Notes under the pieces: model-generated | What the model was told of the DNA's origin: nothing | The model's input: the letters and a program-made list of their open reading frames with translations, nothing else | Databases searched by the model: none | In this document: piece after piece, positions 2,387 through 55,117 of the stretch | Layout: the number at the start of each line of letters is the position of its first letter | Position numbering within the stretch: position 1 is the first letter of the stretch | Made by a program: the position numbers and the translations under genes | DNA from: Candidatus Omnitrophota bacterium | Lineage (GTDB): Bacteria > Omnitrophota > Gorgyraeia > Tantalellales > Tantalellaceae | Reading direction: 5' to 3' | DNA length: 64,000 bases | NCBI GenBank assembly: GCA_028715965.1 | Contig: JAQUQS010000004.1 | Location: 61,963-125,962, forward strand

Positions 2387-3079
2387 GTGGAGAAAAAAAA
2401 GCTAGTGGCTGTGGTGGATGACAGCCCGGACATCCTGAAAATCGTATCTTTACATCTTGAGAAGGCCGGTTTTTTGTCGCGTTGTTTCAAGAACGCCGGG
2501 AGTTTTCTTAACTCCTTGAAGAGTGAAACGCCGGATTTTCTTATACTTGACCTGATCTTGCCTGATATGGACGGTTTTGACGTGTGTAAGCACATGCGTT
2601 CAGATCCCGCTCTGAAGAACATTCCCATACTGATGCTTACCGCGAAAGACGAAGAAGTGGACAAAGTCCTCGGGCTGGAATTGGGCGCTGATGATTATGT
2701 GACAAAACCATTCATGCCCAGAGAACTTATGGCCCGTGTCAAGACCATCCTTAAACGCTATGAAAGGCCGGAAGAAGAGAGTGACAGTACTATAAGATTC
2801 GGTGATCTTTTAAGCATAGACGAAACCCGGCATGAAGTCATTTTGAACGGCAAATCCCTTGTTTTTACCCCTACAGAGTTCAAGATACTCAAACTTCTGT
2901 GCGCATCGCCCGGGCAGGTCTTTACCCGGGAAGCTATATTAAAGCATTTATGGGGAAGCGAGAAAGTCGTCGTAAAGCGTACGGTTGATGTACACATACG
3001 GCATATACGGGAAAAACTCGGCAAATACGCTGATATAGTAAAGAATGTCCCGGGCGTAGGGTATAAATCCGAACTCTAG
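2387..3079 (+). CDS. OmpR/PhoB-family DNA-binding response regulator
   Basis: REC domain (VVDDSPD..LILDLILPDMDGF..LTAKD) followed by a winged-helix trans_reg_C domain (..FTPTEFKILKLL..VVKRTVDVHIRHIREKL). GTG start after a GGGGAG RBS. No cognate kinase in the window. Confidence 0.85.
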   Translation: MEKKKLVAVVDDSPDILKIVSLHLEKAGFLSRCFKNAGSFLNSLKSETPDFLILDLILPDMDGFDVCKHMRSDPALKNIPILMLTAKDEEVDKVLGLELGADDYVTKPFMPRELMARVKTILKRYERPEEESDSTIRFGDLLSIDETRHEVILNGKSLVFTPTEFKILKLLCASPGQVFTREAILKHLWGSEKVVVKRTVDVHIRHIREKLGKYADIVKNVPGVGYKSEL

Positions 3080-3957: not shown

Positions 3958-4093
3958 AGTTTTTCTAACCTCCTCAAGATGTAGTATATATTAAATTACC
4001 TATTATGTCAAATTTATAAAATACGCTTATATATATAAAATACATGAAAGTAAATATTAAATAATAATTAACTAAATAAAAATCCAGTTTTAA

Positions 4094-4121
4094 TTGCATT
4101 TCATAACAATCTAAGTATACT
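4094..4121 (+). promoter_or_regulatory. sigma70-like promoter TTGCAT-N16-TATACT for the tpsA-1 leader
   Basis: Near-consensus -35/-10 hexamers with 16-nt spacing in an AT-rich intergenic region, about 40 nt upstream of the riboswitch-like element. Confidence 0.4.
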
Positions 4122-4162
4122 TAATATAGATACTAAAACTGGTTCTTTTAAATGGATTTTTT

Positions 4163-4297
4163 GAAAAAGGCAACCTCCGTGAAAGCGGAAGGGCGCAAAG
4201 CTATAAGAGCCTAAGACCTCAAGGGGTTACGGTAGTCAGCTGCCAAAGAGAGAAGGTATACATTGACCCATGGCTATTATAGTCATGGGTTTTTTTA
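4163..4297 (+). ncRNA. candidate c-di-GMP-I (GEMM) riboswitch aptamer (4163-4244) plus intrinsic terminator (hairpin 4267-4289, U-tract 4290-4296) in the tpsA-1 5' UTR
   Basis: AAAAAGGCAACC..UGAAAG..GGGCGCAAAGCU..GCCUAAG..GGGGUUACGGUAG..CAGCUGCC aligns block by block with the GEMM consensus and the Vc2 riboswitch (GGCAAACC / GNRA loop / GGGACGCAAAGCC / GCCUAA / GGGGUUACCGA / GCUnCC). Followed by a 10-bp hairpin CCCAUGGCUA-UUA-UAGUCAUGGG and U7. Confidence 0.5.
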
Positions 4298-4359
4298 TCC
4301 CCCGTAGCCAGATAGGATATGAGTAGATAGGCGTAGGAGGATTATTTAGGGGCAAAGAG

Positions 4360-7300
4360 ATGAAGATGACGGGACTGCTGAAGAGAACGGTGAGCGTACT
4401 TGTGGTGTTCAGTTTTTTGAACGCTCAGGTGGCGTATTCTCTCCCACAGGACGTTGAGGTGGTGGAAGGCGCGGCGGATGTTAACATAGAAGGCGCGACG
4501 ATGACGATAAACGCCGACGCCGGCACTATCCTGAATTATTCCTCGTTCGACCTTGCCGAGGGGGAGTCAGTGATAATAAACCTGCCGGGGATAGACGCGG
4601 ATATACTTAACCGTGTTATCGGCGCCGGCGCGTCGAACATAGCGGGGGCCATCTCATGTAACGGGCTTTTCATACTCGTGAACACTAGCGGTATATATCT
4701 CGCGTCGACGGCGAATATCGACGTTGGCAGTCTGGTGCTTTCCACGCGGGATATCACTAACTCTGATTTTGTTAACGGGAAGTATTTCTTCCAGAAGATC
4801 TCGGAGGAAGCGCTGGATACGCTCCTTAAGAACGCGGGCACGATAAACGTGCGTGAAGGCGGGTTCGGCGTCCTTATAGCGGGAGCGATAGAGAACTCGG
4901 GTATGATCGTGGCGCCTATGGGGCGTATACACCTGGCCGCGGGAGACGCGGTGACACTCGCGCTTTCGAGTGACGGGCTTATAAGTGTCGCGATAGACGA
5001 GAAGGTGGCGTCGACGATACATGATATGGACGGGAACCCGATAACCGACCAGATAACGAATACCGGTTCGATCATAGCCGACGGCGGGGTAGTGGCTATA
5101 AGCGCCGAGTCGCTCACGGACATATTCAGGAACGCTATAAATCTTGATGGTATAGTGCAGGCGGATACGATGAGTTCTACTGCTGGCGAGATAAGTATAA
5201 CCTCCTCGAGTGATATAACCCTCGGGGGTGGGATATCAGCCGTAGGGGGCATGATAGGAGTGATCTCGGAGGAAGGGTCGATAAGAGCCGAGGAGACATC
5301 GGAGATGACGGCGCAGGACGTATACGTGGAGGCCCAGAGGGACATATCTCTTGAGGGAACGATAGAGACGATGGAAGGTGGGCTTGTCGATCTCCACGCC
5401 CTTAACGGGTCGATGTACTCACATGGTTCCATAATAGCGCCTGAGGGGGAGATAAATGTGTGCGCGGCGTATGACCTTGACCTCGGGGGGTTCTACAAGG
5501 CGAGCCGCATGGTGTTCGACCCTGAGGAAGTGAACATAACGAGCGACTGGACGGGATCAGGGGATACGACGTTCTGGGCGACGGGGAACATAAATGTGCA
5601 GGCTAACATGACGCTGGAGGAAGGTAGCTTTTATTTCTATGCCGATTCCACCGATGCCAGCGGCACATATGACGACGGTTCGGGTACGTTCACGCAAAGC
5701 TCCAGCTCAACTATAACCGCTGATTATGATATATCCATAGACGGCTCCGGGAGCGTATCGGTGGGCGGAATAGTGTCTACTAGCGGTAGTCTTTATGTGG
5801 GGAATGTTACGGGGGATCATACGAATTCTTATGTAGCGGTTGTGAGTGACCTGAATGTTGCCGAAGATATATCATTAAGCTCATCGGGTGGTATCGGTGT
5901 ATATACCGGCAATACCCTGCAGGCCAACAATATGGACATAAACGCTGACATGGACGGTAATGGTACCGGCTCGTTCTCCATGTTTTCCGGAACGGCTTTG
6001 ACGCTTACAGGCGGAGACCTTTCAATAAGCGCGGGGGAGAATAGTACTTTGGAGGATATCTCCGGGGTCGATCTTTTTACGATAGGATCGACCACCGCGG
6101 CAGGGATAAGTTTTACGTGTGACGCGGCGAACACATTCAGCGTGGATACGTTCAAGACACTTGGCGACGGCTCCACGACTTTTGTGAGGGCGGTCGGTGA
6201 TGGGACCAGTATCCCGCGGATGGTATACGATATAACACAGCTTCAGGCGATGCAGGATAACCTCAGTTGGGATTACCAACTTGCCAACAATATAGACGCG
6301 TCGGCGACTGCCGGCTGGAATTCAGGTGAAGGTTTCGTTCCTGTCGGGGATGATGTGTCGAAATTCACGGGCACATTTGATGGGGGGGGTAAAGTGGTCT
6401 CGGGACTTTTTGTGGACACCACACAGTCTTATACCGGCCTTTTTGGATATGTTTCCGGCGCTACATTATCTGACGTCGGGCTAGAAGATATCTCCATAAC
6501 TGCTACTGTGTCGACCGGGTATGCCTATGTGGGCGGCTTATCCGGATATGCCCAGGATACGCTAGTAACTAACGTATATACAACCGGTTCTGTTGATGCT
6601 ATCAGACCAGGTGGGGTTGCGTTTGGCGGTGGGTTAATAGGTTGCAACGAGGCCAGCGCGTTAGGGCAAGAGGCGAATATAACGAGTTCATATTCTTTGG
6701 CTGATGTGTCAGTGAACGCTCACTCTGGTTATGCGGGTGGGTTGATAGCCCAGAATTCCGCGAACGGTGGCGGGTCGGCGGATATCGCGGATTGTTATGC
6801 GACGGGCTCGGTTTCGATGACAGCTTCATCGTTTTATGCTATGGCGGGAGGGTTGGTCGGACAGAATGTGGCGTATGCCTTTGAAGGAGGACCATCGCTT
6901 CCATGTGCCAACATAACGGGTAGTTATGCTACGGGCGAGGTCCAGGCATCTTCAGGCGGAACGGGTGATGTATGCGCGGGAGGGTTAATAGGGTATAACA
7001 CGACCACTGAAGATAATGCGCTCATAACGGATTCGTACGCCACGGGAAATGCTACCGCTTCAGGAGGTACTAGTACTTACGCGGGAGGGCTCATTGCGTA
7101 TAATGACGCGATCTCAAATGGGGACGCGACCATTACAAGGTCGTACGCTACGGGAGACGCGTCGGCTACAGGGGCGGGAACGACATACGCTGGTGGCCTG
7201 GTCGGGTATATGGACGCGGCTATAATGTCCACGGCGGATGCCGTGGATTCTTTTGCTCTGGGAACGGCCACCGCAACGGGCGGCTCGACCAATTATGTTG

Positions 7301-10300
7301 GTGGGCTGGGAGGGTATATTGATATCGATAGGGATGTCTCTACCAGCAGGTGGTATAACGCTTCGAATACTGATGGTGTCGGTTCACTTGCCGATGGGGA
7401 TACGTTGAAAGAAATAGCCGAGTATTTCACTGACGGCAGCTCAGAGATATATACAAACTGGGATTTCACGGTCGATGGGACCGGGGCGGGTTCGGGAACG
7501 TGGATCATGGCGGGTCTGCCGCACCTCCAGATGGAATGGACGGACACCATAACGACCCTGGAAGAGCTGCAGATGATCCTGCTGGACTATGACGTGTCAT
7601 ATACCCTTGCGAATGACATTGACGCGGCGGCGACGACGGGCTGGAATTGGAACAGCACACGTGGCGTGTATGAGGGGTTCAAGCCATTGACGCTTTTCTC
7701 CGCGACATTTGACGGTTCGGGGTATGAGATATCCGGACTTAACATTGACCGTACCGATACCAATATAGGGATGTTCGGAGTGGTCTTTGCCAGTACGATC
7801 CAGGATCTTTCCCTTTCTTCGGCCAGCATAACGCACAGTGACGCCGTAAGTTCTTATAATCTTGGGGGTGTGGCGGGGTTGGCATATAGCGCTTATCTCA
7901 ACGACATATCGTTCTCGGGAACAGTTTCTGGCTCTACCAGTTCAGGTGACGCGTTTATCGGAGGTCTAACTGGATATATGAACGCCGGGGGCGTAAGCGG
8001 GATCAGTACTGCGGGGACCGTAACCGGGGCATCGAGCCTAGGCAAATGCTATGTGGGAGGGGTGATAGGGCAGTTATATACATCGGCCGCGGGGACCATC
8101 GAGGTAACGCTTTCCGATTCTTCTGCCGATGTCTCCGCGGATTCTGTGGGAGGATATAATTTCGTGGGAGGGCTTATCGGGTCCATAGAGCTGGCTGATT
8201 TCAACCTGGGAAGCGTTTGTAACGTTACTGATTCATACGCCACGGGGGACGTTTCCGGTAATACCACATTCACCCATGTTCTCGCCGGGGGACTTATAGG
8301 CAGGCTGTATATCGCGTACAATGCCGATGTTAACGTGGAAGATTGTTACGCCACAGGTGATGTTTCAGCTACGGGAACACAGCAGGCCCGTGCCGGGGGG
8401 TTGATGGGGCAATTTTCCTCAAATGGCGCTGAATCATACGTAACAATGAACAACTGCTACGCTACGGGAGATGTTACGGCGGTGGCCGGACTTACCGATG
8501 AGTATCCCGCTATGGCGGGTGGGCTGATAGGCTTGGTCCGGGCCGACGCGGACGGGACGACCATTATCAATAACTCTTTCGCAACGGGGACCGCTTCGGC
8601 CACGGGAGCCAGGCCGCGTGAATGCGGATTGGTAGGATGGGATGCCGGGGGAGAATACAATGATTGCCTGTGGTTTAACTCCACAAATATACAGGGGATG
8701 TACTTCGAGACACCTGACTCATATGACGGTACGGCGCTGAAGGCCGCCAGTCTTCCGGACCTTTTCGACGCGGATAGCGATCTTTTCTCTACATGGGATC
8801 TTACCGCGGACGGTACCGGCGGACAATGGGTCATACAAAGCAGGGCCGCTCCCCCCGATTTTTACAGGGAATACAACGTATGGACGGGCGGTGGAACGAC
8901 CAATAATTGGTCGGATGCCGCTAACTGGAGCGCCTTAGCCGCACCATCGATCTTTAGCAAAGTACTTTTGAGTTCCGTTAGCACGAAAAGTGTCACATGG
9001 GATTCTGATATCACCGTGGCAAAAATGCATATAGATGCTTCGTACACGGGACAATTGACACAGGGTGACGGGTACGAGCTTACCGCCACGGACGTTTATT
9101 ACCAGGGCGGTGGTACCGTGCGGACATCGGGAACGGACCTTTCTGTCGAGGGAGGTACTTTTGTGCAGGACGGAGGAAGCATCACGCTGGCCAGTGGCGG
9201 GGATATCTACCTGGATAGCGCCGGGTATATGGAGCTTTATGACGTCTCCTGCGGGGACGAAAGCACTATATACTTAGGTTCAAGGGAAGCCCCGAGCTCG
9301 GTAGTCGTGACCGGGACGATAAGCACGTTATATCCCGGTGGGTCCCAAAGCGGTCTTGAGATATATTCCGATGGCGGGATAAGTGTCGAAGGCGCGGTGG
9401 GCGGTTCAACTTATTATTTCGACTCCATCCACCTTTACCTGGACCATGATGATAACTCCGCGCTCAGCAATATACACGGAAGTTTTTACGCTGACCTGGT
9501 ATATGTACTCGCGCAGAACAATATTGTGGTGGACGGCACACTGGCCAATGACGCGGGAGCTCTTTACGTTGGGCAGCCGGGATATACCCCGGATTCTATA
9601 ACCCAGGACGGGAGAGTGCGGGCCGCTACTTATGTGGGAATGTATGCTAACGTGGACATAAACATGTACGATGAACTGTCCTCTAACGCTAGCATGTGGA
9701 TAATGGCCGATTATGACGATAACGGGTCAGGGGCCTTCCGGCAGGTAAGCGGCAGTATAGTTTCATATGGCGACCTATCCATAGATGGTTCCGGGGAGAT
9801 GGTCCTGGGTTATGTTTATCTGGGAGATAGCGCGGACATGACCATAGGAGAATATCGCACTCCGGATATCGTAACGATCGATATTGGTGTGGGCGGTGCC
9901 GCCGGAGGCGGGGACATCTCTATATATTCGAACGGAGATATCAACCTGGGCGGGGATATAGGTTCCGGTTCTACGGTATTCAATAACGTCAGGTTCTACC
10001 CGGACTATGACTCAAATGCCGGGATGAGTACCGTGGGAGGAAATGTATACGCGGATTATTTTTATATCGAGACGGATTCACCGCTGTCCCTTACTGAGAC
10101 CAATGTCTATGGTGGAGGACTTTATGTGGGGGCGTTGGGCAGGGCTCCGATTTCCGTGTCGACCTTGGAGCCTTTATATGGGTTCTATGACATCGATATA
10201 TATTCCGACGGAGATATCCTTATCGGGGACGATATATATGGATATGAAGTTGAGCTGTTCGCGGATTATGATGGCAATGGCACGGGAAGTTTCACCCAGA

Positions 10301-12675
10301 CCGGGGGGATAATCGAGTCATACGGGGATATAGTGATAGACGGTGTAGGGGATATGGATTTGGGCGCCATTACGATAAATGACGGGAGCGATATAATAAT
10401 CGGGTCTTCCAGAAAGCCGAGCTCCGTTACGTTGAACGGGGTGATAACGGGTATCAACGACCCATATCTGGAGATATGTACCAGCGGGAACATATTGCAG
10501 AACGCGGATATCGGAGCGGAAGGCCTGGCGTTCGGTTCCGTTAGGTTCTATATGGATGATGATATGGCCAATGGATACGGCGGATTTATCGCCAATAGCG
10601 GGACTATCTACGCGGATAATGTCGTTCTAGAGGCCCCGGGAGATATGGAATTGGGCGGTATAAGTGTATATGGCGGCGATCTATGGACTTACGGAGATCA
10701 TATTCCCAGCAGCCTTACTTTGACGGGTGATGTAAGTGTCGGGTACGGGGATATATATATAAGCACCCTGGGAAGCTATGACCAGTCCTCATCAGTGGTT
10801 TCCACGACGGGTTCGGGATCGATAAGCATTACGTCCACTGGGACGTCGTATCTTAACGATATTAACGGGGCTGAAGGGATACTTCTTCTGGCCAACAGCG
10901 GCCAAAGCGCGGTTTATAACGCGTCGGATTCGATGTTCAACATTACCGGCGGTATCGGGATATCAAGTAACGTAACTCTTAACGGCCAATCATCGGATAT
11001 CAGGCTCTCGGGAGCTTGGACCAATAGTGGCATATTTAACGCGGGTACATCCATTGTTACTTTCAATGGGGCCGGTACAGGGGCCATTTACGGGTCGAAC
11101 ACTTTTTATGATCTCAAGTGCGTTACTCCAGGCAAGACGTTGAGGTTCGCGGCGGGACGAACCCAGGTAGTATCGGGGGCATTGACGCTTGGCGGGACAG
11201 AAGCTAATAAGGTGATCCTTTCCAGTACTTCCGATGGGACCCAATGGCATATAGACGCGAGAGGGAGCATGTCTATAGCTAATGTTTCGGTAAAAGATTC
11301 GTTCAACGATAAAGGTCTCTATATCGACCCGGCCGGTTCTATTGATAGAGGGGGTAATTCGTACTGGTTCACGCCCTCGGTGCCACAGGATGATCCGGTC
11401 GACAATGACAATAATGTGCCGGGAGAAGGTAGCGAGACACTGGATGAAACCGTTTTGTTGGATGAGGCCCCGGGAGACAACGATATAGGGGACCAGGATA
11501 TGGGGGACGTCGTGAACACCGGACAGGAGACGTCGGGAGATGAAACTAGCATCGAGAACGCGGGTGATGATATGGCCGGCGAGACAGGGGGAGAAGAGGA
11601 TGACCCTGAGCCCACGGTCATGGCCGCTTCCACCTCGGTCGAAGATGGAAGTAGTGATGGCGGCACCTCGACCGATGGGTCCACGGATGAGGATAATGAC
11701 GAAAATAGCGGTGGGACAGATGACGGTTCGGATGATATCTCTGATGAGGACGCCGGCGGGACGATCGTGGATGACGGCGAGGACGAAGAGGGGGACAGTG
11801 GCTCAAAGAAGAAAAAGAGCTCCGGGAATGCGCAGAAGTTGAGCGTTTCAGGAGAGGAAGAAGATGATGCTGAGGGCGCGTCGGCCGGGACTGGCGTAGG
11901 TTCCGAAGAAGATAAAGAGAATAAAAAAGAGAAGACGGAGCGAGGTCCGATGGATCGGCAGAACGTTATTGATGCGTTGTCCGCCAGAGGGTTTACATGG
12001 AATCCTTCGACCGGGACATTCGAAAAAGGGTTCCAACCTGGCGAGTATCACACAAAAGTATTCGTGTTCGAGGGAGAGGTCCTGGTGAATACGTTCAAGG
12101 GCGTAGCGCTTGACCCGTCAAATCTCACGATACTTACTAACGGACAACATATCAGTATTGGTGGAGTTTTTGATGGAGAAAAAGAACTGCTTGCCGGGGA
12201 TGATGGCGTAGAAATCCGGGGTCAGTTGCCTGAACTTGGTGGAGAAGACGGTGAACTCTCGGATATAGTCGGGCGTACGGGCAAGATCACCGCTATAAGC
12301 GGAAAAGTCGATATCATAAAGAAAGCGGGGCAAGAGAACGTTTCGGCACAAATAGGCATGACCCTTGAGGAGGGGGATGTATTGGTGACTGATACGGATA
12401 GCGAGGCGACCATTGAGCTTGCCGGTAAAAAGGGCAAAACAGCCGCGGAAGTTGACCTGTCGGAAAATACCCAGATCATGGTCGATGAGCTTAGTCTTGT
12501 CCCAGATAAGGGTACGGAAGATACCTTGCTGGATATTGCCGTGGGGAAGATACTTGTTAAGGTCGAAAGCCTAAAGGACAGTGGGGGGTCCACTTTTGAG
12601 ATCCAGACACCTACCTCCATCGTAGCGGTAAGAGGGACGGTTTTTACGGTGGAAGTAAGCCCATCCAAAGAATAA
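4360..12675 (+). CDS. two-partner secretion exoprotein TpsA-1 (2771 aa): signal peptide, TPS/haemagglutination-activity domain, GLUG-type repeats, DYDxDGxG repeats, acidic D/E-rich linker, FecR-like C-terminal domain
   Basis: N-terminus (signal peptide; ..ILNYSSFDLAEGESVIINLPG..ILNRVIGAGASNIAGAISCNGLFILVNTSGIY..) matches the FhaB/ShlA-type TPS domain. Central region has reiterated GGLIGYN..SYATGDV blocks (GLUG motif). C-terminus ..VAVRGTVFTVEV fits the FecR domain pattern. A cognate TpsB gene lies downstream. Confidence 0.85.
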   Translation: MKMTGLLKRTVSVLVVFSFLNAQVAYSLPQDVEVVEGAADVNIEGATMTINADAGTILNYSSFDLAEGESVIINLPGIDADILNRVIGAGASNIAGAISCNGLFILVNTSGIYLASTANIDVGSLVLSTRDITNSDFVNGKYFFQKISEEALDTLLKNAGTINVREGGFGVLIAGAIENSGMIVAPMGRIHLAAGDAVTLALSSDGLISVAIDEKVASTIHDMDGNPITDQITNTGSIIADGGVVAISAESLTDIFRNAINLDGIVQADTMSSTAGEISITSSSDITLGGGISAVGGMIGVISEEGSIRAEETSEMTAQDVYVEAQRDISLEGTIETMEGGLVDLHALNGSMYSHGSIIAPEGEINVCAAYDLDLGGFYKASRMVFDPEEVNITSDWTGSGDTTFWATGNINVQANMTLEEGSFYFYADSTDASGTYDDGSGTFTQSSSSTITADYDISIDGSGSVSVGGIVSTSGSLYVGNVTGDHTNSYVAVVSDLNVAEDISLSSSGGIGVYTGNTLQANNMDINADMDGNGTGSFSMFSGTALTLTGGDLSISAGENSTLEDISGVDLFTIGSTTAAGISFTCDAANTFSVDTFKTLGDGSTTFVRAVGDGTSIPRMVYDITQLQAMQDNLSWDYQLANNIDASATAGWNSGEGFVPVGDDVSKFTGTFDGGGKVVSGLFVDTTQSYTGLFGYVSGATLSDVGLEDISITATVSTGYAYVGGLSGYAQDTLVTNVYTTGSVDAIRPGGVAFGGGLIGCNEASALGQEANITSSYSLADVSVNAHSGYAGGLIAQNSANGGGSADIADCYATGSVSMTASSFYAMAGGLVGQNVAYAFEGGPSLPCANITGSYATGEVQASSGGTGDVCAGGLIGYNTTTEDNALITDSYATGNATASGGTSTYAGGLIAYNDAISNGDATITRSYATGDASATGAGTTYAGGLVGYMDAAIMSTADAVDSFALGTATATGGSTNYVGGLGGYIDIDRDVSTSRWYNASNTDGVGSLADGDTLKEIAEYFTDGSSEIYTNWDFTVDGTGAGSGTWIMAGLPHLQMEWTDTITTLEELQMILLDYDVSYTLANDIDAAATTGWNWNSTRGVYEGFKPLTLFSATFDGSGYEISGLNIDRTDTNIGMFGVVFASTIQDLSLSSASITHSDAVSSYNLGGVAGLAYSAYLNDISFSGTVSGSTSSGDAFIGGLTGYMNAGGVSGISTAGTVTGASSLGKCYVGGVIGQLYTSAAGTIEVTLSDSSADVSADSVGGYNFVGGLIGSIELADFNLGSVCNVTDSYATGDVSGNTTFTHVLAGGLIGRLYIAYNADVNVEDCYATGDVSATGTQQARAGGLMGQFSSNGAESYVTMNNCYATGDVTAVAGLTDEYPAMAGGLIGLVRADADGTTIINNSFATGTASATGARPRECGLVGWDAGGEYNDCLWFNSTNIQGMYFETPDSYDGTALKAASLPDLFDADSDLFSTWDLTADGTGGQWVIQSRAAPPDFYREYNVWTGGGTTNNWSDAANWSALAAPSIFSKVLLSSVSTKSVTWDSDITVAKMHIDASYTGQLTQGDGYELTATDVYYQGGGTVRTSGTDLSVEGGTFVQDGGSITLASGGDIYLDSAGYMELYDVSCGDESTIYLGSREAPSSVVVTGTISTLYPGGSQSGLEIYSDGGISVEGAVGGSTYYFDSIHLYLDHDDNSALSNIHGSFYADLVYVLAQNNIVVDGTLANDAGALYVGQPGYTPDSITQDGRVRAATYVGMYANVDINMYDELSSNASMWIMADYDDNGSGAFRQVSGSIVSYGDLSIDGSGEMVLGYVYLGDSADMTIGEYRTPDIVTIDIGVGGAAGGGDISIYSNGDINLGGDIGSGSTVFNNVRFYPDYDSNAGMSTVGGNVYADYFYIETDSPLSLTETNVYGGGLYVGALGRAPISVSTLEPLYGFYDIDIYSDGDILIGDDIYGYEVELFADYDGNGTGSFTQTGGIIESYGDIVIDGVGDMDLGAITINDGSDIIIGSSRKPSSVTLNGVITGINDPYLEICTSGNILQNADIGAEGLAFGSVRFYMDDDMANGYGGFIANSGTIYADNVVLEAPGDMELGGISVYGGDLWTYGDHIPSSLTLTGDVSVGYGDIYISTLGSYDQSSSVVSTTGSGSISITSTGTSYLNDINGAEGILLLANSGQSAVYNASDSMFNITGGIGISSNVTLNGQSSDIRLSGAWTNSGIFNAGTSIVTFNGAGTGAIYGSNTFYDLKCVTPGKTLRFAAGRTQVVSGALTLGGTEANKVILSSTSDGTQWHIDARGSMSIANVSVKDSFNDKGLYIDPAGSIDRGGNSYWFTPSVPQDDPVDNDNNVPGEGSETLDETVLLDEAPGDNDIGDQDMGDVVNTGQETSGDETSIENAGDDMAGETGGEEDDPEPTVMAASTSVEDGSSDGGTSTDGSTDEDNDENSGGTDDGSDDISDEDAGGTIVDDGEDEEGDSGSKKKKSSGNAQKLSVSGEEEDDAEGASAGTGVGSEEDKENKKEKTERGPMDRQNVIDALSARGFTWNPSTGTFEKGFQPGEYHTKVFVFEGEVLVNTFKGVALDPSNLTILTNGQHISIGGVFDGEKELLAGDDGVEIRGQLPELGGEDGELSDIVGRTGKITAISGKVDIIKKAGQENVSAQIGMTLEEGDVLVTDTDSEATIELAGKKGKTAAEVDLSENTQIMVDELSLVPDKGTEDTLLDIAVGKILVKVESLKDSGGSTFEIQTPTSIVAVRGTVFTVEVSPSKE

Positions 12676-12750
12676 CAGCCTCATAATATGTTATAAAATA
12701 AGCACTTAAAAAGTTAATCACAACTTAATCACAAAATAATGGGTTCTTGT

Positions 12751-12778
12751 TTGTATCGTATTAATAGTATGATATACT
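12751..12778 (+). promoter_or_regulatory. sigma70-like promoter TTGTAT-N16-TATACT for the tpsA-2 leader
   Basis: Same architecture as the promoter at 4094-4121; sequence diverges upstream of it and becomes identical downstream. Confidence 0.4.
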
Positions 12779-12819
12779 TAAATTGATACTAAAACCGGTT
12801 CTTTTAAATGGATTTTTTG

Positions 12820-12953
12820 AAAAAGGCAACCTCCGTGAAAGCGGAAGGGCGCAAAGCTATAAGAGCCTAAGACCTCAAGGGGTTACGGTAGTCAGCTGCC
12901 AAAGAGAGAAGGTATACATTGACCCATGGCTATTATAGTCATGGGTTTTTTTA
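12820..12953 (+). ncRNA. second copy of the candidate c-di-GMP-I (GEMM) riboswitch plus intrinsic terminator, in the tpsA-2 5' UTR
   Basis: Nucleotide-identical to 4163-4297 (aptamer about 12820-12900; hairpin 12924-12946; U-tract 12947-12953). Confidence 0.5.
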
Positions 12954-13015
12954 TCCCCCGTAGCCAGATAGGATATGAGTAGATAGGCGTAGGAGGATTA
13001 TTTAGGGGCAAAGAG

Positions 13016-16000
13016 ATGAAGATGACGGGACTGCTGAAGAGAACGGTGAGCGTACTTGTGGTGTTCAGTTTTTTGAACGCTCAGGTGGCGTATTCTCTCC
13101 CACAGGACGTTGAGGTGGTGGAAGGCGCGGCGGATGTTAACATAGAAGGCGCGACGATGACGATAAACGCCGACGCCGGCACTATCCTGAATTATTCCTC
13201 GTTCGACCTTGCCGAGGGGGAGTCAGTGATAATAAACCTGCCGGGGATAGACGCGGATATACTTAACCGTGTTATCGGCGCCGGCGCGTCGAACATAGCG
13301 GGGGCCATCTCATGTAACGGGCTTTTCATACTCGTGAACACTAGCGGTATATATCTCGCGTCGACGGCGAATATCGACGTTGGCAGTCTGGTGCTTTCCA
13401 CGCGGGATATCACTAACTCTGATTTTGTTAACGGGAAGTATTTCTTCCAGAAGATCTCGGAGGAAGCGCTGGATACGCTCCTTAAGAACGCGGGCACGAT
13501 AAACGTGCGTGAAGGCGGGTTCGGCGTCCTTATAGCGGGAGCGATAGAGAACTCGGGTATGATCGTGGCGCCTATGGGGCGTATACACCTGGCCGCGGGA
13601 GACGCGGTGACACTCGCGCTTTCGAGTGACGGGCTTATAAGTGTCGCGATAGACGAGAAGGTGGCGTCGACGATACATGATATGGACGGGAACCCGATAA
13701 CCGACCAGATAACGAATACCGGTTCGATCATAGCCGACGGCGGGGTAGTGGCTATAAGCGCCGAGTCGCTCACGGACATATTCAGGAACGCTATAAATCT
13801 TGATGGTATAGTGCAGGCGGATACGATGAGTTCTACTGCTGGCGAGATAAGTATAACCTCCTCGAGTGATATAACCCTCGGGGGTGGGATATCAGCCGTA
13901 GGGGGCATGATAGGAGTGATCTCGGAGGAAGGGTCGATAAGAGCCGAGGAGACATCGGAGATGACGGCGCAGGACGTATACGTGGAGGCCCAGAGGGACA
14001 TATCTCTTGAGGGAACGATAGAGACGATGGAAGGTGGGCTTGTCGATCTCCACGCCCTTAACGGGTCGATGTACTCACATGGTTCCATAATAGCGCCTGA
14101 GGGGGAGATAAATGTGTGCGCGGCGTATGACCTTGACCTCGGGGGGTTCTACAAGGCGAGCCGCATGGTGTTCGACCCTGAGGAAGTGAACATAACGAGC
14201 GACTGGACGGGATCAGGGGATACGACGTTCTGGGCGACGGGGAACATAAATGTGCAGGCTAACATGACGCTGGAGGAAGGTAGCTTTTATTTCTATGCCG
14301 ATTCCACCGATGCCAGCGGCACATATGACGACGGTTCGGGTACGTTCACGCAAAGCTCCAGCTCAACTATAACCGCTGATTATGATATATCCATAGACGG
14401 CTCCGGGAGCGTATCGGTGGGCGGTGTTGTCTCCAATATGGGAAGCATACATATCGGACAAGTCACAGGCAACCATGATGTGTCGTATATAGGCATGCTT
14501 GGCTCATTGTATGCGAGTAATGAGGTAACGCTTTATTCCGATGGTGATATACACCAAGGTGGGGACATGACAGGTGAGGTCATATATCTGTATCCAGATC
14601 ATGACTCCGATGGCAGCGGCCAGTTCCAGACAAGTTTATCGTATGTCATCAATGGGATGGATCTCTACCTTGACCAGAGCACGGACATAGACATAAGTAA
14701 TTTTAACGCGAATGTGGAATATTTTTATATCGGTAACAACGGGATCACGCCCAGTTCCGTTACGATCGGTGGCGAGAATCATGTGTATGGGACACTCGAC
14801 ATTACTTCCAACGGTGATATCGTCCAGAATGGGACGATCTATTCTGAGGCCGGATACGGGCTTTACCTGCAACCCGATTATGATAACGACGGGAACGGCC
14901 AGTTTATACAAAATTCAGGAAGCATTTGTAACTTTTATGAGATGAGCCTGTATCAGGGTACCAATATCACGCTTGATTATTACATGGACACCTACAATGT
15001 TTACGGGATCAACATATATGGCGAAGGTGAGGTTAACCTCAATGGCGGCATATATGCGACAAGCGATTTGTACGTGTACGCAAATGACGGTATTTCTTTG
15101 GGCGGTCCGCTACATTTCGATTATTACCTTGAGCTAAACGCCGATTATGACAACGATGGGTACGGCAGCTTGGTCGCGAACGGGAACAGCATATCCCCAG
15201 TAAGTTATTTTGATACGGCTAACATAACTACTGCAGGCGATCTTAACGTATCTGACATCGAAAGCCTGTTTTCCGGCGATGTTCCGGCAACTTCTTTGAC
15301 TTTGCGTTCGACCGCAGGCAATATCACACTCGACCAGTATTATGATCCCGAGTTCTTATATTCGCTGCAACTTATAGCGGCTGATGATATCAACTTGAAT
15401 GAGTGGATAGCGTTATCATACGGCAATGTTGGCCTGATCGCCGATTATGACGGAGACGGAGACGGTAATTTCAATTTCTCATCGGCAGGGATAAGCGCGG
15501 GCTCCGTTACTTTCAGTAAGAACAGTGATTTCAGTATCACATCGGATCTTATCTCCGACATAGACGCCAGCAATATCACATTCACGGCCGGCGGGGATTC
15601 CGACCTCTCGGTTGATGCCAGCCTATCATGCAGCGGGGCATTAAATCTACAGGCGGATGGGGATATTTCCATTAATTATGGGGTCAGCACAGGGACCACA
15701 TTTTCGGTCGTTGCCGATTACGACACGGATAATTCCGGGAACGTTATCTGGTATAGCGGGGTGTCCGCGAGTATGGGGACAGGAGGGACGCTGAGATACC
15801 AGCAAGCCGATAGTTTCGCGTATTCGGATGTAACAAGCCGTGTTTATGGACAAACGACAGGAGGGGTCACGTTGAGGTCTACGAACGGTTCGGTGACCGT
15901 GGACCAGGCGATCACGCTCAGGACCGGCATCATCGATCTAAGGGCGGATGAGGACCTGCTTATAAATTCAAATATATCCACCACGAGCTCATCAACTATG

Positions 16001-19000
16001 TATCTTTACGCGGACGCGGAGAACAACGGTTCAGGGGGCTTTATGCAATCGGGGTCGGCTTCTATAACTTCAGGAGGGACCGCCCAGATCGCGCTACGCG
16101 CGGCAGGCACGGGAAGTTTATTGGGCGATATAACGGCCGGCCGGTTATATCTTTACGCGCAGTCAGGTGGCGCCACATATGCGCTCCAGGACGGGTGTAA
16201 TGTGGACCTGAATTATTACACTTCTTCCTATGGTCTTTATGTCGCCAGTAATGCTATATTTAACGGTGGAAATAATACGACCATATCTACGGGAGGAGAC
16301 TGGTGGGTGGACGGCACGTTCAATGGGCAGGGATCTACGGCCATATTGGATGGTACGTATTCCGGCACGAAGGATATACGGATGGACGCGGGCTCATTCA
16401 ATAACCTTACGATAAACGCGAGCGGGACATATTCCCCATATACTTCCACCACGCCTACGGTAGTTGCGGGCGGTGACCTCAGCATCACTGCGGGCATATT
16501 GAGCATGACCACGAACGATCTCGTGGTAGGCGGAGACCTTCTTATCGACGGAGGCGTACTTATCGCCAATGGCGCGGGTGTGGACATTGATGTCGATGGG
16601 GATGTCTTGATCCGCGCGGGGGACTTTTTCGCCCCGACGGGCCTGGACGATGTTTCGTTCACGGTAGGGGGCGGATTTGAAGTATCGGGTGCGGGTGATT
16701 ATTATAACGGCAATGGAAGGGTCGTATTCGATTCATCCGATATAGGGAACGATATCATCCTTACAACCTCCGGGTCCTATTTTTTCAATGACGTAAAGTT
16801 CAGCGGCGGAGGTGAATGGACTCTCACCGGCCTTATGCTGGCCTCCGGTGATCTGTATATGTATGACGGGACGCTCGTCGCCGGAGGACTGATAATAGCC
16901 GCGGATACATTAGCAATGGATGGCGGGAATATCACAAGTGATGGAAATGATGTCGAGATCATCGCTTCGACTTTTACGCAGACAGCGGGGGCGATAACGA
17001 CAACATCAGAAGGGGATGTGAAGATCAGTTCTACCGCTATGCCCGGGGCATTTACTGTCGGGGAGATAAATTCCGATGGTGGTGTTTTCATCGGAGAGAC
17101 CAACGCTCCGGTCACGGTCAGCCAGACATCAGGGACATCAATAACAGCGGTGGGAGATAGAGGCATAGAGATCAGCGCGTCAGGCGATATTACACTGCGG
17201 CAGGTCAATTCCGGAAGTTACGACACGACGATCACGTCAACGGCGGGGTCCATCCTCGACGGGCTTACGGGAGAAAGCGCGAACATAACGGCGGCAGCGG
17301 CTACACTCACGGCGGCTACGGGTATAGGTGTAACTGGAAGCGAGGACCTTGACCTTGACGTGGCGACGCTTGACGCGTCCGTAACGGGTACGGGTGACAT
17401 TTATATATGGGAGGACAGCGCGATAACATTAAGTGATGTTGATACCAGCGCGGGCAAGATAGATATATCATCAGGGGGAACAATGACCGCGACGGATGTC
17501 GTGGCTGGCGATACGGGAGAAGTGTGGCTGACAACGACGAGCGGGAACATACAGGCTGGCGTGATCACGGCTTCCGGGAGCAAGGTAGTTCTCGCAGCCG
17601 CGGGTGCGATAACGGACACGAACGGTGCGAGCGTTAATATAACCGGGAGCACGGTGGACCTTGATGCCGCGACAGGCATAAGTGTGGATACTTCGGTGAA
17701 TAATATCACGGCGGACGTGTCCGGGGTCGGGAATGTCGACATAAGCGAGACAGATGATGTGAACATTAACGGTGTCTCCTCATATGAGGGGGATATCATA
17801 TTGACAAGCGGCGGCGTTATGACCGTTGCCGATGACATATCCGCCACAGGCTTCGGGAATATATCCATGACCGCCGACGGGATGAACCAGACCGGTGGCA
17901 GTATATACGCGCCCGCGGGCGAGATATGGATCGATGGCGCGGGTGATATTGTCCTGGGGGCCATAGAGGCGGCTGGGAATCTGACCATCGGGTCCAATGT
18001 GGCGCCGGATTCCGTGACCTTTAACGAAGATATCCACGCGTATAATAGCATAGACGTTATATCCAACGGGAACATTGACCAGAACGCGGACATATACAGT
18101 GACGGATCGTATGATATCTATCTGCGTCCCGACTATGACGGGGACGGTGCTGGGCAGTATTCGGGCAACGGGCATTCGCTTCTGGTGAACGCGCTTTATA
18201 TCGACCAATCGACCGATATGGTGCTTAACGGGTTTACTCTCCAGAATGGTTATGTGTTAGCCGGCACCCTTAGTGCGCCATCATCAATTACCGTGAACGG
18301 CGATATAAATGGATATTACGCGTTTTACGCGGAAAGTAACGGGAATATCGACGTGAACGCGAATATATACACGCAATATGACCTGTATCTCGACGCGGCC
18401 GGTGATATAAACATAAATTCACTTTTGAGTTCAGGGGACGTGATATCTATAGGGGGATCCATATCGCCATCCTCTGTGACAATAACATCCGCTGGTTCCA
18501 TATATTCGGGGAATACCGTTACAATATCATCCGGCGGTGATCTGGTTTTCGATAACCTGTCAGGGGCGATAGACTCGTATTTCCTGACCGGTAACGCCGG
18601 AAGCGACATAACGGTGGCGAACACCCTCAATATCGGTGTCGGATTATCCCTTGACGCCACGGGCAATATAGATGCCGAGGGCTCGATCGGTGGTATGTCT
18701 GAGACGCTTACCCTTAACGCGGGCGGGTATATTGATATAGCGGGGACCGCTACAGGGATAACCGCTGTAACGATAGACGCTTCGGGTGATGTGACCCTGG
18801 GGGGCATTGACTGCCAGGGAGACCTCGCGATAGGCGGGACGACTTCCCCGGCGAATGTTCACCTTAACGGTAGTAGCACGGTTACGGGTACTAACACGGC
18901 CCAGATCAGTTCGGCCGGGAATGTTGCCTTCAATGGCGATCTTGTCACGATATGTGGTATCACGGTCAGCGCGGTGAATAATGTTACGATAGCTAATAGT

Positions 19001-21109
19001 ATTACCGGAGTTAATTCGGATATTTCACTGTACGCGGGGGGGAATATCAGCCATGCCTCCGGCACGGTATCTACGGAAACGAGCGGGGACATATATATGA
19101 ACGGCGGCGGGGATCTCGCTTTGCGCAATATCAACAGCGCTGGGAGTGTATACGTGGGTGATCCTGAAGCTCCTTTATCTATCACGCAAGGAACGGGAAC
19201 TGTGATCAACGCGGGTGGCGATATCAGCGTTGTGTCCGCGGGTGACGTAACGCTTGCGGAGTTGATCTCCGGGTCCGGGAGCGTTTCGGTGACCTCGTCC
19301 GGCGGGGGGATATACGATGGACTCGGCACGACCGACGCGAATATTACGGCCGGAAGCCTTACTCTTAGCGCGGCTACGGGAATAGGCATCCTGGGTGGAG
19401 AAGATGTCGATATCTCCGCGGATTCTCTCTTCGCTGAGGTCACGGGTCCGGGCGACATACATATAAATGAATTCGGGAGCATAACGATAAGCTCAACAAG
19501 CACTTATGACGGCTCGATCGATATCACATCTGAAGAGAAGATGACGGTATCGGATATTGCCGCGGGCGGTGCTGGCGATATTTCGCTTTGTACGGGGTCA
19601 GGAGACCTGGAGCTCGCGGGGAATATAACGGCGAACGCGGGGAATGTTTCTCTTGCCGCGGGCGGCGCGTTTACGCATATATCCGGAGTCATACATACTG
19701 ATACGACGGGAGATGTGAGCATTAGTTCGGTTGGCGCGTCATCACTTGGGGACATAACGAGCGCGGGGGCGCTGAACCTGGATACCGGAAGCGCAGCTAC
19801 TTATGGTTCGACCGGCACAATTGATACGGTGGGAGCCGTGGTGATAAGCAGCGGGGTCAATGTGGACGCCAATTCCTCGGTATGGACGGTAGGAGGGGAC
19901 TGGACGAATAACGGTACGTTCAATGGAGACACTTCGAGTGTAACGCTTGACGGCGCAAGTGACGCCGCGGTGACGGGCCCTAACACCTTCGGTGACCTTG
20001 CGATAGAGACGGAGGGTAAGACCGTAACGTTCGAAGCGGGCGAGACCCAGACGGTTACCGGCGAGTTCAGCGCGCAGGGTTCCTCGGGGGTCGGCAACCT
20101 GGTGACGCTCAGGAGTTCGTCCGCCGGCAGCGCGTGGGGGCTGGACATACAGGGCGCGGCAAGCGTCAATTTCGCGGACGTCAAGGATTCGGCGAATGTC
20201 GGGACCGAGATCACGGCCACGAATTCCAAGGACAGAGGAGGCAACACCGGCTGGAGTTTTGAGTCATCGCTTCTTACATGGCTGGGAGTTAGCTCGACCA
20301 GCTGGGATGACGCTTCCAACTGGGACCTGGGATACGTGCCGAACGTAAGTGACAGCGTGGAGATAGTATCCGCGGGTAATTACGCGGCTTTAGTTTCGGA
20401 TGTCGAGATAAACTCTCTTACGATAGACTCGGGCGGCCGGATGGACGCGGGTTCTTACAGGATAACGGTTTCCGGTGACTGGACGAACGCGGGTACGTTC
20501 AACGCGGGTACGGGCACGGTCGTTTTCGATCCGATGACGGGGACATCGCGGATAAGCGGGTCGACTATGTTCAATGACCTCACCTGCGTAACTCCTGGAT
20601 CCACGCTGGTATTCGGTTCGGGGACGACGCAGACGGTGAACGGCAGGCTTGACATATCAGGTTCGGTATCAAGCCGAATAAACCTGATGGGTTCGGTAGC
20701 GGGAAGTTATTGGCATATAAACCCTAAAGGGGCGATAAGCGTGACGAACGTTACAGTGAGGGATTCATACAATGACAAAGGCGTATTCGTGGATCCAGCG
20801 GGGTCGGTGGATAACGGTAAGAACCTTTTCTGGTTCACGCCTCCGGTTAACGATATACCGGACGAGACGGATAACGTGGGTCAGAACAAGAACAATATGA
20901 TCCTTGAAGGGAAAGGAAATGACTCTTTCGACCCCAGGGGTGTGGCGAATGGTCCTGCCGGGACAGGCATATTCATGGAGGACTATTTCGTCAACACGGG
21001 TTTTGGCATGGTATCCTCGGACGGGTCGCCATTTTTTATGTATCATGGTCTTTCTGACCCCGACATATATGGGCGCCGCGAACTCCCTGATCGGGACATG
21101 GTGGTTTAG
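13016..21109 (+). CDS. two-partner secretion exoprotein TpsA-2 (2697 aa): first 470 aa identical to TpsA-1 (TPS domain), then an unrelated beta-helix-like repetitive passenger with DYDxDGxGQF repeats and two copies of a conserved C-terminal module
   Basis: N-terminal 470 aa, and the antisense ORFs, are identical to TpsA-1. Divergence starts at ..SVSVGG(I/V)VS... Low-complexity G/T/S/D/N-rich repeats are typical of TpsA passengers. Confidence 0.85.
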   Translation: MKMTGLLKRTVSVLVVFSFLNAQVAYSLPQDVEVVEGAADVNIEGATMTINADAGTILNYSSFDLAEGESVIINLPGIDADILNRVIGAGASNIAGAISCNGLFILVNTSGIYLASTANIDVGSLVLSTRDITNSDFVNGKYFFQKISEEALDTLLKNAGTINVREGGFGVLIAGAIENSGMIVAPMGRIHLAAGDAVTLALSSDGLISVAIDEKVASTIHDMDGNPITDQITNTGSIIADGGVVAISAESLTDIFRNAINLDGIVQADTMSSTAGEISITSSSDITLGGGISAVGGMIGVISEEGSIRAEETSEMTAQDVYVEAQRDISLEGTIETMEGGLVDLHALNGSMYSHGSIIAPEGEINVCAAYDLDLGGFYKASRMVFDPEEVNITSDWTGSGDTTFWATGNINVQANMTLEEGSFYFYADSTDASGTYDDGSGTFTQSSSSTITADYDISIDGSGSVSVGGVVSNMGSIHIGQVTGNHDVSYIGMLGSLYASNEVTLYSDGDIHQGGDMTGEVIYLYPDHDSDGSGQFQTSLSYVINGMDLYLDQSTDIDISNFNANVEYFYIGNNGITPSSVTIGGENHVYGTLDITSNGDIVQNGTIYSEAGYGLYLQPDYDNDGNGQFIQNSGSICNFYEMSLYQGTNITLDYYMDTYNVYGINIYGEGEVNLNGGIYATSDLYVYANDGISLGGPLHFDYYLELNADYDNDGYGSLVANGNSISPVSYFDTANITTAGDLNVSDIESLFSGDVPATSLTLRSTAGNITLDQYYDPEFLYSLQLIAADDINLNEWIALSYGNVGLIADYDGDGDGNFNFSSAGISAGSVTFSKNSDFSITSDLISDIDASNITFTAGGDSDLSVDASLSCSGALNLQADGDISINYGVSTGTTFSVVADYDTDNSGNVIWYSGVSASMGTGGTLRYQQADSFAYSDVTSRVYGQTTGGVTLRSTNGSVTVDQAITLRTGIIDLRADEDLLINSNISTTSSSTMYLYADAENNGSGGFMQSGSASITSGGTAQIALRAAGTGSLLGDITAGRLYLYAQSGGATYALQDGCNVDLNYYTSSYGLYVASNAIFNGGNNTTISTGGDWWVDGTFNGQGSTAILDGTYSGTKDIRMDAGSFNNLTINASGTYSPYTSTTPTVVAGGDLSITAGILSMTTNDLVVGGDLLIDGGVLIANGAGVDIDVDGDVLIRAGDFFAPTGLDDVSFTVGGGFEVSGAGDYYNGNGRVVFDSSDIGNDIILTTSGSYFFNDVKFSGGGEWTLTGLMLASGDLYMYDGTLVAGGLIIAADTLAMDGGNITSDGNDVEIIASTFTQTAGAITTTSEGDVKISSTAMPGAFTVGEINSDGGVFIGETNAPVTVSQTSGTSITAVGDRGIEISASGDITLRQVNSGSYDTTITSTAGSILDGLTGESANITAAAATLTAATGIGVTGSEDLDLDVATLDASVTGTGDIYIWEDSAITLSDVDTSAGKIDISSGGTMTATDVVAGDTGEVWLTTTSGNIQAGVITASGSKVVLAAAGAITDTNGASVNITGSTVDLDAATGISVDTSVNNITADVSGVGNVDISETDDVNINGVSSYEGDIILTSGGVMTVADDISATGFGNISMTADGMNQTGGSIYAPAGEIWIDGAGDIVLGAIEAAGNLTIGSNVAPDSVTFNEDIHAYNSIDVISNGNIDQNADIYSDGSYDIYLRPDYDGDGAGQYSGNGHSLLVNALYIDQSTDMVLNGFTLQNGYVLAGTLSAPSSITVNGDINGYYAFYAESNGNIDVNANIYTQYDLYLDAAGDININSLLSSGDVISIGGSISPSSVTITSAGSIYSGNTVTISSGGDLVFDNLSGAIDSYFLTGNAGSDITVANTLNIGVGLSLDATGNIDAEGSIGGMSETLTLNAGGYIDIAGTATGITAVTIDASGDVTLGGIDCQGDLAIGGTTSPANVHLNGSSTVTGTNTAQISSAGNVAFNGDLVTICGITVSAVNNVTIANSITGVNSDISLYAGGNISHASGTVSTETSGDIYMNGGGDLALRNINSAGSVYVGDPEAPLSITQGTGTVINAGGDISVVSAGDVTLAELISGSGSVSVTSSGGGIYDGLGTTDANITAGSLTLSAATGIGILGGEDVDISADSLFAEVTGPGDIHINEFGSITISSTSTYDGSIDITSEEKMTVSDIAAGGAGDISLCTGSGDLELAGNITANAGNVSLAAGGAFTHISGVIHTDTTGDVSISSVGASSLGDITSAGALNLDTGSAATYGSTGTIDTVGAVVISSGVNVDANSSVWTVGGDWTNNGTFNGDTSSVTLDGASDAAVTGPNTFGDLAIETEGKTVTFEAGETQTVTGEFSAQGSSGVGNLVTLRSSSAGSAWGLDIQGAASVNFADVKDSANVGTEITATNSKDRGGNTGWSFESSLLTWLGVSSTSWDDASNWDLGYVPNVSDSVEIVSAGNYAALVSDVEINSLTIDSGGRMDAGSYRITVSGDWTNAGTFNAGTGTVVFDPMTGTSRISGSTMFNDLTCVTPGSTLVFGSGTTQTVNGRLDISGSVSSRINLMGSVAGSYWHINPKGAISVTNVTVRDSYNDKGVFVDPAGSVDNGKNLFWFTPPVNDIPDETDNVGQNKNNMILEGKGNDSFDPRGVANGPAGTGIFMEDYFVNTGFGMVSSDGSPFFMYHGLSDPDIYGRRELPDRDMVV

Positions 21110-54945: not shown

Positions 54946-55117
54946 CTCCCTTAACCGCCTTTTCTTTACTTACATTGCTTTTTGAAGGTTGATTTGAAAT
55001 AACTTAAATATGATCGCATGTACTTGGCAATTTATTGTAAATTCGTATACTTTTTATAGTACGTTATTTTATGTTGACTGATATATGTTCAGGTTTTCAG
55101 ATAAAAGGAGTTGTCAT

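Follow-up and report, generated by a model that had tools for sequence, protein, structure and literature searches.

A probable c-di-GMP attenuation leader, present in two identical copies, ahead of tandem genes for giant TpsA exoproteins in an Omnitrophota genome

Introduction

A contig from an uncultured Candidatus Omnitrophota bacterium carries two consecutive genes for giant exoproteins, tpsA-1 and tpsA-2, and each gene is preceded by the same RNA leader. Is the second leader a regulatory unit in its own right or the passenger of a repeat, in which direction would it switch tpsA-2, and what would it do to transcripts that arrive from tpsA-1? We analyzed 64,000 nucleotides of this contig (the window), along with related loci from other genomes. 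Our overall reading is that positions 12751-13015 are probably a complete, independent attenuation leader for tpsA-2: an OFF switch of the type of Cd1, which would also provide a conditional 3' end for tpsA-1 transcripts and which would have been homogenized by conversion.

Results

Two giant exoprotein genes and a convergent transporter gene

Both exoprotein genes are on the + strand. tpsA-1 (4360-12675) encodes a protein of 2,771 amino acids with a TPS domain, a GLUG motif, and a C-terminal FecR-like domain; tpsA-2 (13016-21109) encodes a protein of 2,697 amino acids with an N-terminal TPS secretion domain. In both proteins, PF05860 matches residues 34-290 with 85 bits. The hydrophobic N-terminus of TpsA ends in AYSLPQ, which we read from the sequence as the end of a putative signal peptide. 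The TPS domain has its closest homologs in Candidatus Omnitrophota MAGs, in proteins annotated as "filamentous hemagglutinin N-terminal domain"; identity to them is at most 59-62%.

The gene for the transporter, tpsB (21106-22995), lies on the - strand and is convergent with tpsA-2; the stop codons of the two genes overlap by 4 nt (21106-21109). TpsB matches ShlB (114.5 bits) and POTRA_2 (57.6 bits). The components of two-partner (type Vb) secretion are both present, namely exoproteins with TPS domains and, nearby, an Omp85-type TpsB with POTRA. They do not form a single tpsA/tpsB operon, as tpsB is on the opposite strand. (Operon linkage of tpsB and tpsA is typical for type Vb systems but is not strictly defining.) A search 5' of tpsB for riboswitches or other RNA families, even at E ≤ 1, gave only a chance match to mir-259 (E = 0.67). 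By this search, tpsB is not riboswitch-controlled.

The window contains a third giant ORF (55473-63905, - strand, 2,810 amino acids), for which neither a Pfam family (at E ≤ 1e-5) nor a riboswitch was found; its upstream region is nearly at the window edge. A tandem array at 53865-54946 (5.5 copies of a 194-nt unit, with 88% matches) lies mostly between the aconitase gene, which ends at 53806, and this - strand ORF, which ends at 55473. There are no ORFs of at least 180 amino acids in that gap.

The second leader contains a class I c-di-GMP aptamer

The sequence-only reading had placed an aptamer at about 12820-12900 and had named a covariance-model search as the way to check it. When we ran Rfam's models on the 64-kb window (cmscan at the gathering threshold), there were only two matches, both to c-di-GMP-I (RF01051) and both on the + strand. 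The match in the second leader, at 12815-12903, has a score of 65.6 bits, as against a gathering threshold of 35 (E = 1.3e-10), and covers model positions 1-87 of 87, so the proposed span was borne out. The aptamer of the first leader (4159-4247) is an identical match over the whole model, with the same 65.6 bits against the same threshold. A covariance model built from the lineage (described below) gives the second aptamer 83.5 bits.

The two-hairpin architecture of GEMM-I (c-di-GMP-I) RNAs, in which one hairpin has a GNRA tetraloop and the other is its receptor, is present in the second copy, with a GAAA tetraloop at 12837-12840. The junction CGCAAAGC (12850-12857) carries the GCAAAG motif, and the 3' end reads GCUGCC, which includes the GCC motif. 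We placed the ligand contacts (the equivalent of G20, the intercalating A of GCAAAG, and the C of the 3' GCC) by Vc2 numbering, which follows from the Vc2 structures; the equivalent of G20 is then G12825, and the specificity position holds a G, not an A. The aptamer is on the same strand as the TPS-domain exoprotein gene and 113 nt 5' of it, and the order of elements in the leader is promoter (12751-12778), aptamer (12815-12903), and start codon (ATG at 13016). Judged by every feature of RF01051 that can be tested in silico, 12815-12903 is a class I c-di-GMP aptamer, and from its sequence we infer that the ligand is c-di-GMP.

Aptamers recur ahead of tpsA in other Omnitrophota

To obtain relatives, we scanned species-representative genomes with the TPS-domain profile. 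This yielded 79 loci, mostly from Omnitrophota MAGs. Among the first 20 loci, 9 have an Rfam c-di-GMP-I aptamer 5' of the tpsA homolog. We built a covariance model from the Rfam-positive relatives and ran it on all 79 loci, and found an aptamer 5' of tpsA in 29 of them, always on the strand of the gene (29/29). Nearly all of these aptamers are within about 500 nt of the TPS match; that of L007 is about 2 kb upstream.

The helices of the aptamer covary in the relatives. Across 30 distinct sequences, 96.7% of the cells are paired and 15 of the 19 pairs show double changes, with the caveat that the alignment was fitted to the covariance model and the counts lean towards it. None of 500 shuffles reached the observed value, and slid controls gave 23-42%. 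The recurrence of the aptamer and its covariation argue that its pairing with tpsA is lineage-wide and selected, rather than due to chance.

Tandem arrangements are also found elsewhere. L016 and L030 are about 9 kb apart on one contig, L006 and L021 are about 19 kb apart on another, and each of these tpsA genes has its own aptamer. At L030, 360 nt separate the end of the upstream ORF from the aptamer, with a TTGACT-16-TGnTATACT promoter in this interval, and there is no terminator ahead of the riboswitch terminator. This is the layout of tpsA-1 and the second leader in the window.

Some relatives (L001, at about 2730-3050, L002, L014, and L044) have a small conserved ORF between the riboswitch and tpsA. 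It encodes about 98-143 amino acids, with the motif TFLTREQIDYLDKLGKD...ILAELV. The window has no such ORF.

The second leader has its own predicted promoter

As the sequence-only reading had proposed, a TTGTAT-N16-TATACT promoter precedes the second aptamer: it is in the sequence, and its TG-n-TATACT element is kept in related leaders. The -35 element is TTGTAT (12751-12756, + strand), the spacer is 16 nt, and the -10 region is TGaTATACT (12770-12778). The TATACT box itself is at 12773-12778 and the TG is at 12770-12771, which makes this an extended -10. The predicted TSS is at about 12785. A generic scanner did not report this promoter because its -35 element matches at only 3 of 6 positions. 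In about 20 of 31 leaders, a -10 element that is TG-n-TATACT or close to it, accompanied by a TTGAcx -35, lies 32-75 nt 5' of the aptamer; in the second leader, the -10 element sits 36 nt before the aptamer. (We took the best match within 130 nt 5' of each aptamer; the mean score was 10.0, versus 8.2 ± 0.9 for shuffles.) These comparisons support the prediction of a sigma-70-type promoter with an extended -10.

The first leader (4094-4296, + strand) is built in the same order, with a TTGCAT-N16-TATACT promoter (4094-4121), the aptamer, and a terminator (4265-4291, with U7 to 4296). The -35 regions of the two copies differ (TTGCAT versus TTGTAT). On the 5' side of the first leader is a divergent ORF of 293 amino acids (3076-3957, - strand) with weak similarity to wHTH proteins. 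The shared intergenic region (19% G+C) contains a strong promoter-like site on the - strand at 3983-4011 (TTGACA-17-TATACT, 11 of 12 matches).

Between promoter and aptamer lies a conserved motif, GTTCTTTTAAA (12798-12808, + strand), about 17 nt 5' of the start of the Rfam match. The core G(T/C)TCTTT is found in 18 of 30 related leaders; its distance from the aptamer is 12-33 nt, in most cases about 20 nt. The longer form G(T/C)TCTTT(T)AAA is present in both leaders of the window (12798-12808 and 4142-4152) and in L003, L006, L014, L016, L021, L026, L030, L035, L044, L046, and L051, among others. In the MFE fold of the second leader, GUUCUUU (12798-12805) pairs with the purine-rich 3' flank of the aptamer, GAGAGAA (12904-12910). 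We considered an extended P1 helix formed by these two segments and rejected it: across 18 loci, the motif had no preference for its own flank over those of other loci (permutation p = 0.54), and no covariation between motif and flank was seen in those loci.

A self-contained terminator follows the aptamer

A hairpin with a U7 tract had been proposed at 12924-12953. We place the intrinsic terminator at 12921-12952 (+ strand), with a stem of 12 base pairs and a UUA loop (12921-12947) and a U7 tract (12946-12952), so the proposal stands with slightly revised ends. The 3' end of the stem (to 12947) overlaps the T7 run (from 12946). The stem-loop alone folds with -16.9 kcal/mol, and it has a twin at 4265-4291 in the first leader. 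It begins 18 nt past the end of the aptamer and is self-contained, as it shares no strand with the aptamer. This arrangement is kept in relatives: in 25 non-redundant leaders (24 relatives and the window), a hairpin with U5-8 starts 12-102 nt past the aptamer and never overlaps it.

Two other kinds of sites resemble terminators. On the - strand, a terminator-like site at 12847-12830 is the antisense of the aptamer's P2 hairpin and A-rich junction, and we rejected it. In L001, L007, L032, L034, L037, L046, and L052, the first 20 nt or so directly 3' of the aptamer contain (A)AGAGAUUUUUU(U), possibly an additional U-tract or terminator close to the aptamer. No other terminator is present in L001 or L052.

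In many of the relatives, the 5' arm of the terminator is complementary to strands of the aptamer. The arm often reads (U)GACCCAUAGC, which is the complement of a conserved aptamer segment, GCUAUGG-nn-GUCA, in the 3' strand of P3. In a second group, the arm is CCCAUUCU, which complements GGAUGGG in the 3' strand of P2. On average, pairing of the arm is stronger with the aptamer of the same leader (-11.3 kcal/mol) than with those from other loci (-10.3 kcal/mol; permutation p = 0.0055, a statistic that is inflated by relatedness among the loci). We also tried the 3' arm as a negative control (-11.7 versus -11.3 kcal/mol), but this was uninformative because the 3' arm resembles one strand of the aptamer and is able to pair with the partner of that strand.

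We then folded partial transcripts that end at the terminator loop, so that the 5' arm is present and the 3' arm is absent. In the MFE structures, the arm lies on aptamer positions 63-77 in 6 loci, on positions 26-36 in 5-6 loci, and on positions 80-86 plus the linker in 4 loci. The P3-strand register is in the MFE of L042, L046, L021, L030, L040, and L022; in L018, L003, and L019, we looked for a convincing pairing of arm and aptamer and found none.

In the window, the proposed antiterminator partner of the 5' arm (12920-12931) is the aptamer segment GGUUACGGUAGUCA (12881-12894, + strand), which is the 3' strand of P3. The arm, UGACCCAUGGCU, retains the class-A sequence, and the aptamer reads GGUUACGG-UA-GUCA. 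Evaluated explicitly, this register has 11 pairs (three of them G.U), one A.C mismatch, and a 2-nt bulge, and the helix alone is worth -5.7 kcal/mol. The MFE structure of the partial transcript (-32.8 kcal/mol) does not contain this register; the best fold compatible with it has -29.6 kcal/mol, which is 3.2 kcal/mol higher. Nor does the window's arm prefer its own aptamer, as 15 of 24 other aptamers pair with it better.

Direction of the switch

We propose that the promoter with its extended -10, the class I aptamer, and the self-contained terminator would form one independent regulatory leader (12751-13015) for tpsA-2, and that this leader would act by transcription attenuation. The 5' arm of the terminator would pair either with the 3' arm, which gives termination, or with an aptamer strand, which gives an antiterminator. 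Binding of c-di-GMP would lock the aptamer, the 5' arm would be freed, the terminator would form, and tpsA-2 would be OFF; at low c-di-GMP, transcription would read through into tpsA-2.

Experiments have established Cd1 from C. difficile as an OFF switch; its antiterminator is formed by an aptamer strand and a switching strand (PMC9262584). Because the strand order in the folds of the relatives is that of Cd1, and because the arm is complementary to aptamer strands in the relatives, we lean towards OFF for the window as well. This assignment draws mainly on the relatives, since the antiterminator pairing of the window itself is weak. It also runs against the common view that adhesins are induced by c-di-GMP.

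The leader could alternatively be an ON switch, in which the ligand would keep the terminator from forming and raise tpsA-2 expression; this would be expected if the TpsA proteins are adhesins used in biofilms or attachment. Bc3-5 and Vc1 act as ON switches. Both are class I riboswitches upstream of adhesin genes, in B. thuringiensis and V. cholerae, respectively (PMC4759541; PMC4744006). The weak antiterminator pairing in the window also speaks for an ON switch, and the conserved upstream motif could take part in a three-state design. But in pilM, which is an ON switch, the aptamer strand is a part of the terminator (PMC9262584), while the terminator in the window is self-contained and 18 nt past the aptamer. 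Furthermore, on reading the sequence, neither the linker nor the 5' leader has an evident complement of either terminator arm, and in the relatives it is the aptamer strands that the arm complements. We consider an ON switch unlikely.

An identical tract in two diverged paralogs

The second leader had been described as nucleotide-identical to the first over about 135 nt. The identity is real and extends much further: at an offset of 8656, an in-register comparison gives a perfect direct repeat of 1,628 nt (12797-14424, + strand, identical to 4141-5768), which covers the leader and codons 1-470 of tpsA. Just outside its left edge is a single T/C difference (4140 versus 12796), and there is a 1-nt indel between the -10 box and that edge. 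Imperfect similarity reaches back to the -10 box and no further, which implies that the homology of the two copies begins at the -10 element, as the -35 regions differ. To the right of the tract, the first mismatches are mainly spaced at 3 nt, that is, at third codon positions. The two proteins are identical up to residue 470, about 31% identical over the next 110 residues (504 of 581 overall), and only patchily similar thereafter. In the tandem paralogs of other MAGs, the region matching the repeat is just 68-82% identical.

A perfect 5' tract with sharp boundaries, within two old and diverged paralogs, points to recent gene conversion or recombination. Such an event would have homogenized 1,628 nt, comprising the leader and the TPS domain, and this would be how the leaders came to be identical. 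Through homogenization, the two cargoes would continue to share their mode of regulation and to fit the single TpsB.

It could instead be that the second copy is not an independent unit at all: the repeat might be an artifact of the assembly, or a very recent duplication with the second leader as passenger, in which case the hairpin and U7 tract would merely be the terminator of tpsA-1. It is unusual for an assembly of the metagenome type to show 100% identity across 1,628 nt, and we sought an independent assembly of the junction and found none (exact DNA patterns for the copy-2 junction and for the aptamer core had no match in metagenome contigs). However, the repeat has unique, diverged sequence on both sides, the codons 3' of it are homologous but diverged in frame, the second copy has its own, different -35 region along with a conserved extended -10, and other MAGs have tandem riboswitch-tpsA pairs that are not identical (L016/L030 and L006/L021). 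This makes an artifact or a passenger leader very improbable. (A search of a protein collection for the exact TpsB protein also found no match; the listed ORF begins at the first TTG, which is perhaps not the start that was called there.)

The ligand and the level of control

An A at the G20-equivalent position is a change associated with GEMM-I variants that are selective for 3',3'-cGAMP. Seven related aptamers (L003, L015, L017, L029, L034, L051, and L064) have an A at this position, which is model position 11, and the aptamer of L002 has a C. The window encodes a protein with GGDEF and HD_5/HD (HD-GYP-type) domains (39542-41119, + strand), about 18 kb 3' of tpsA-2. It is likely a c-di-GMP cyclase/phosphodiesterase, which would mean that c-di-GMP turnover is encoded nearby.

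In the leader, AGGAGG is at 12992-12997, 18 nt from the ATG, and the translation signals are atypical. The terminator is 63 nt 5' of the start codon and so cannot mask the ribosome-binding site, and on this ground we rejected translational control as the main mode. That another cyclic dinucleotide such as 3',3'-cGAMP is sensed, or that translation or RNA stability is regulated instead of termination, would fit the A-type relatives and the distant AGGAGG, but it is extremely improbable given the G at the G20-equivalent of the window's aptamer, the GGDEF/HD-GYP gene nearby, and the strong U7 terminator, which is right after the aptamer, is kept in relatives, and is far from the start codon.

Read-through from tpsA-1

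If the second leader is an attenuator, it might act on two populations of transcripts, as it had been claimed that no obvious terminator lies between the tpsA-1 stop codon (12675) and this leader. We likewise found none. A terminator scan gave no terminator-like site on the + strand between 12400 and 12920; the 140 nt from the stop codon to the aptamer are 25% G+C; and the fold of 12660-12815 is no better than that of shuffles (z = -1.2). In a scan of the whole window for hairpins followed by T5, the riboswitch terminators were the only clean + strand sites in 4000-22000, and no terminator was found after tpsA-1 or tpsA-2. Canonical terminators do occur at gene ends elsewhere in the genome (1320-1346, 43594-43620, and 43911-43883).

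Because there is no terminator after tpsA-1, polymerases coming from upstream would meet the same decision point, and it is reasonable to expect that upstream transcripts encounter this second checkpoint. The second terminator would then double as a conditional 3' end for tpsA-1 transcripts. At the junction of tpsA-2 and tpsB, there is no terminator on either strand, and since tpsB is convergent, read-through from tpsA-2 would be antisense to tpsB. Under the OFF model, a transcript started at promoter 1 could, at low c-di-GMP, extend across both genes and continue into the antisense of tpsB.

Discussion

c-di-GMP riboswitches with terminator platforms are textbook material, so the riboswitch class itself is not new. 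What this locus adds is that the riboswitch is associated with tpsA across Omnitrophota, that it likely represses, that the strand used for switching varies, and that the tandem copies are identical. We found no literature that links riboswitches to TpsA or hemagglutinin genes, or that describes a cyclic-dinucleotide riboswitch on a TPS gene, and the Omnitrophota literature that we examined mentions neither riboswitches nor c-di-GMP.

A broader proposal, which we offer tentatively, is that giant TpsA exoproteins form a phylum-wide OFF regulon in Omnitrophota, mostly responsive to c-di-GMP and in a minority of cases (those with A20) to cGAMP. In tandem arrangements, the downstream terminator would be the ligand-dependent 3' end of the upstream gene, and conversion would keep the leader and TPS domain identical. 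If this is true, then a second messenger represses surface or host-contact proteins, which is the reverse of the CdrA/adhesin paradigm, and such repression would fit the predatory or host-dependent lifestyle that has been proposed. The length of the operon (one gene, two genes, or an antisense run-on into tpsB) would be set by c-di-GMP.

The leaders would also give a handle on when Omnitrophota nanobacteria deploy their giant surface proteins. Platforms whose switching strand comes from P3, P2, or the 3' tail would be a natural series of variants for studying how OFF switches evolve, and identical tandem copies with no intervening terminator would be a simple natural case of ligand-dependent operon architecture.

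Comparison with known systems

The closest parallel is Cd1, from the leader of the flgB operon in Clostridioides difficile, where an intrinsic terminator likewise stands apart from a class I aptamer, on its 3' side, with the same strand order: aptamer 5' strand, aptamer 3' strand, switching strand, and terminator strand (PMC9262584). Cd1 controls flagellar genes in a Firmicute, whereas the window's leader precedes giant TpsA exoproteins in Omnitrophota. The switching partner in Cd1 is a strand of the closing helix, while the Omnitrophota relatives often use an internal one instead (the 3' strand of P3 or P2). Also unlike Cd1, the leader in the window occurs twice, as identical tandem copies on the same strand.

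Other class I riboswitches share single aspects of this leader. Bc3-5 is upstream of a gene for a collagen-adhesion surface protein and is an ON switch, as opposed to the OFF switch that we favor for the window. Vc1 has no clear terminator platform, and its regulation is positive. Bc3-5 from Bacillus thuringiensis resembles the window in having multiple class I aptamers in tandem (PMC4759541), but its three aptamers are in one 5'-UTR, while the window has one aptamer and terminator per gene, for two consecutive genes with their own promoters. Bc1, which like Bc2 is a further class I riboswitch of B. thuringiensis, combines its aptamer with a rho-independent terminator platform (PMC11218506). 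Vc1, 5' of gbpA in Vibrio cholerae, has its class I aptamer in the leader of a gene for a colonization factor that is secreted or at the surface (PMC4744006). The cargo of Vc1 uses a secretion route other than that of the window's TpsA.

For the cargo rather than the RNA, the comparison is with CdrAB. Expression of this exoprotein depends on c-di-GMP, which induces it; control is exerted by FleQ, a protein regulator, and through proteolysis by LapG. Like the genes in the window, CdrAB of Pseudomonas aeruginosa is a TpsA/TpsB system, with CdrA as the adhesin (PMC8346871). But CdrAB is protein-controlled and induced, and its tpsB is co-transcribed, whereas the window has an RNA switch that is probably repressive, and a tpsB that is convergent and outside of riboswitch control.
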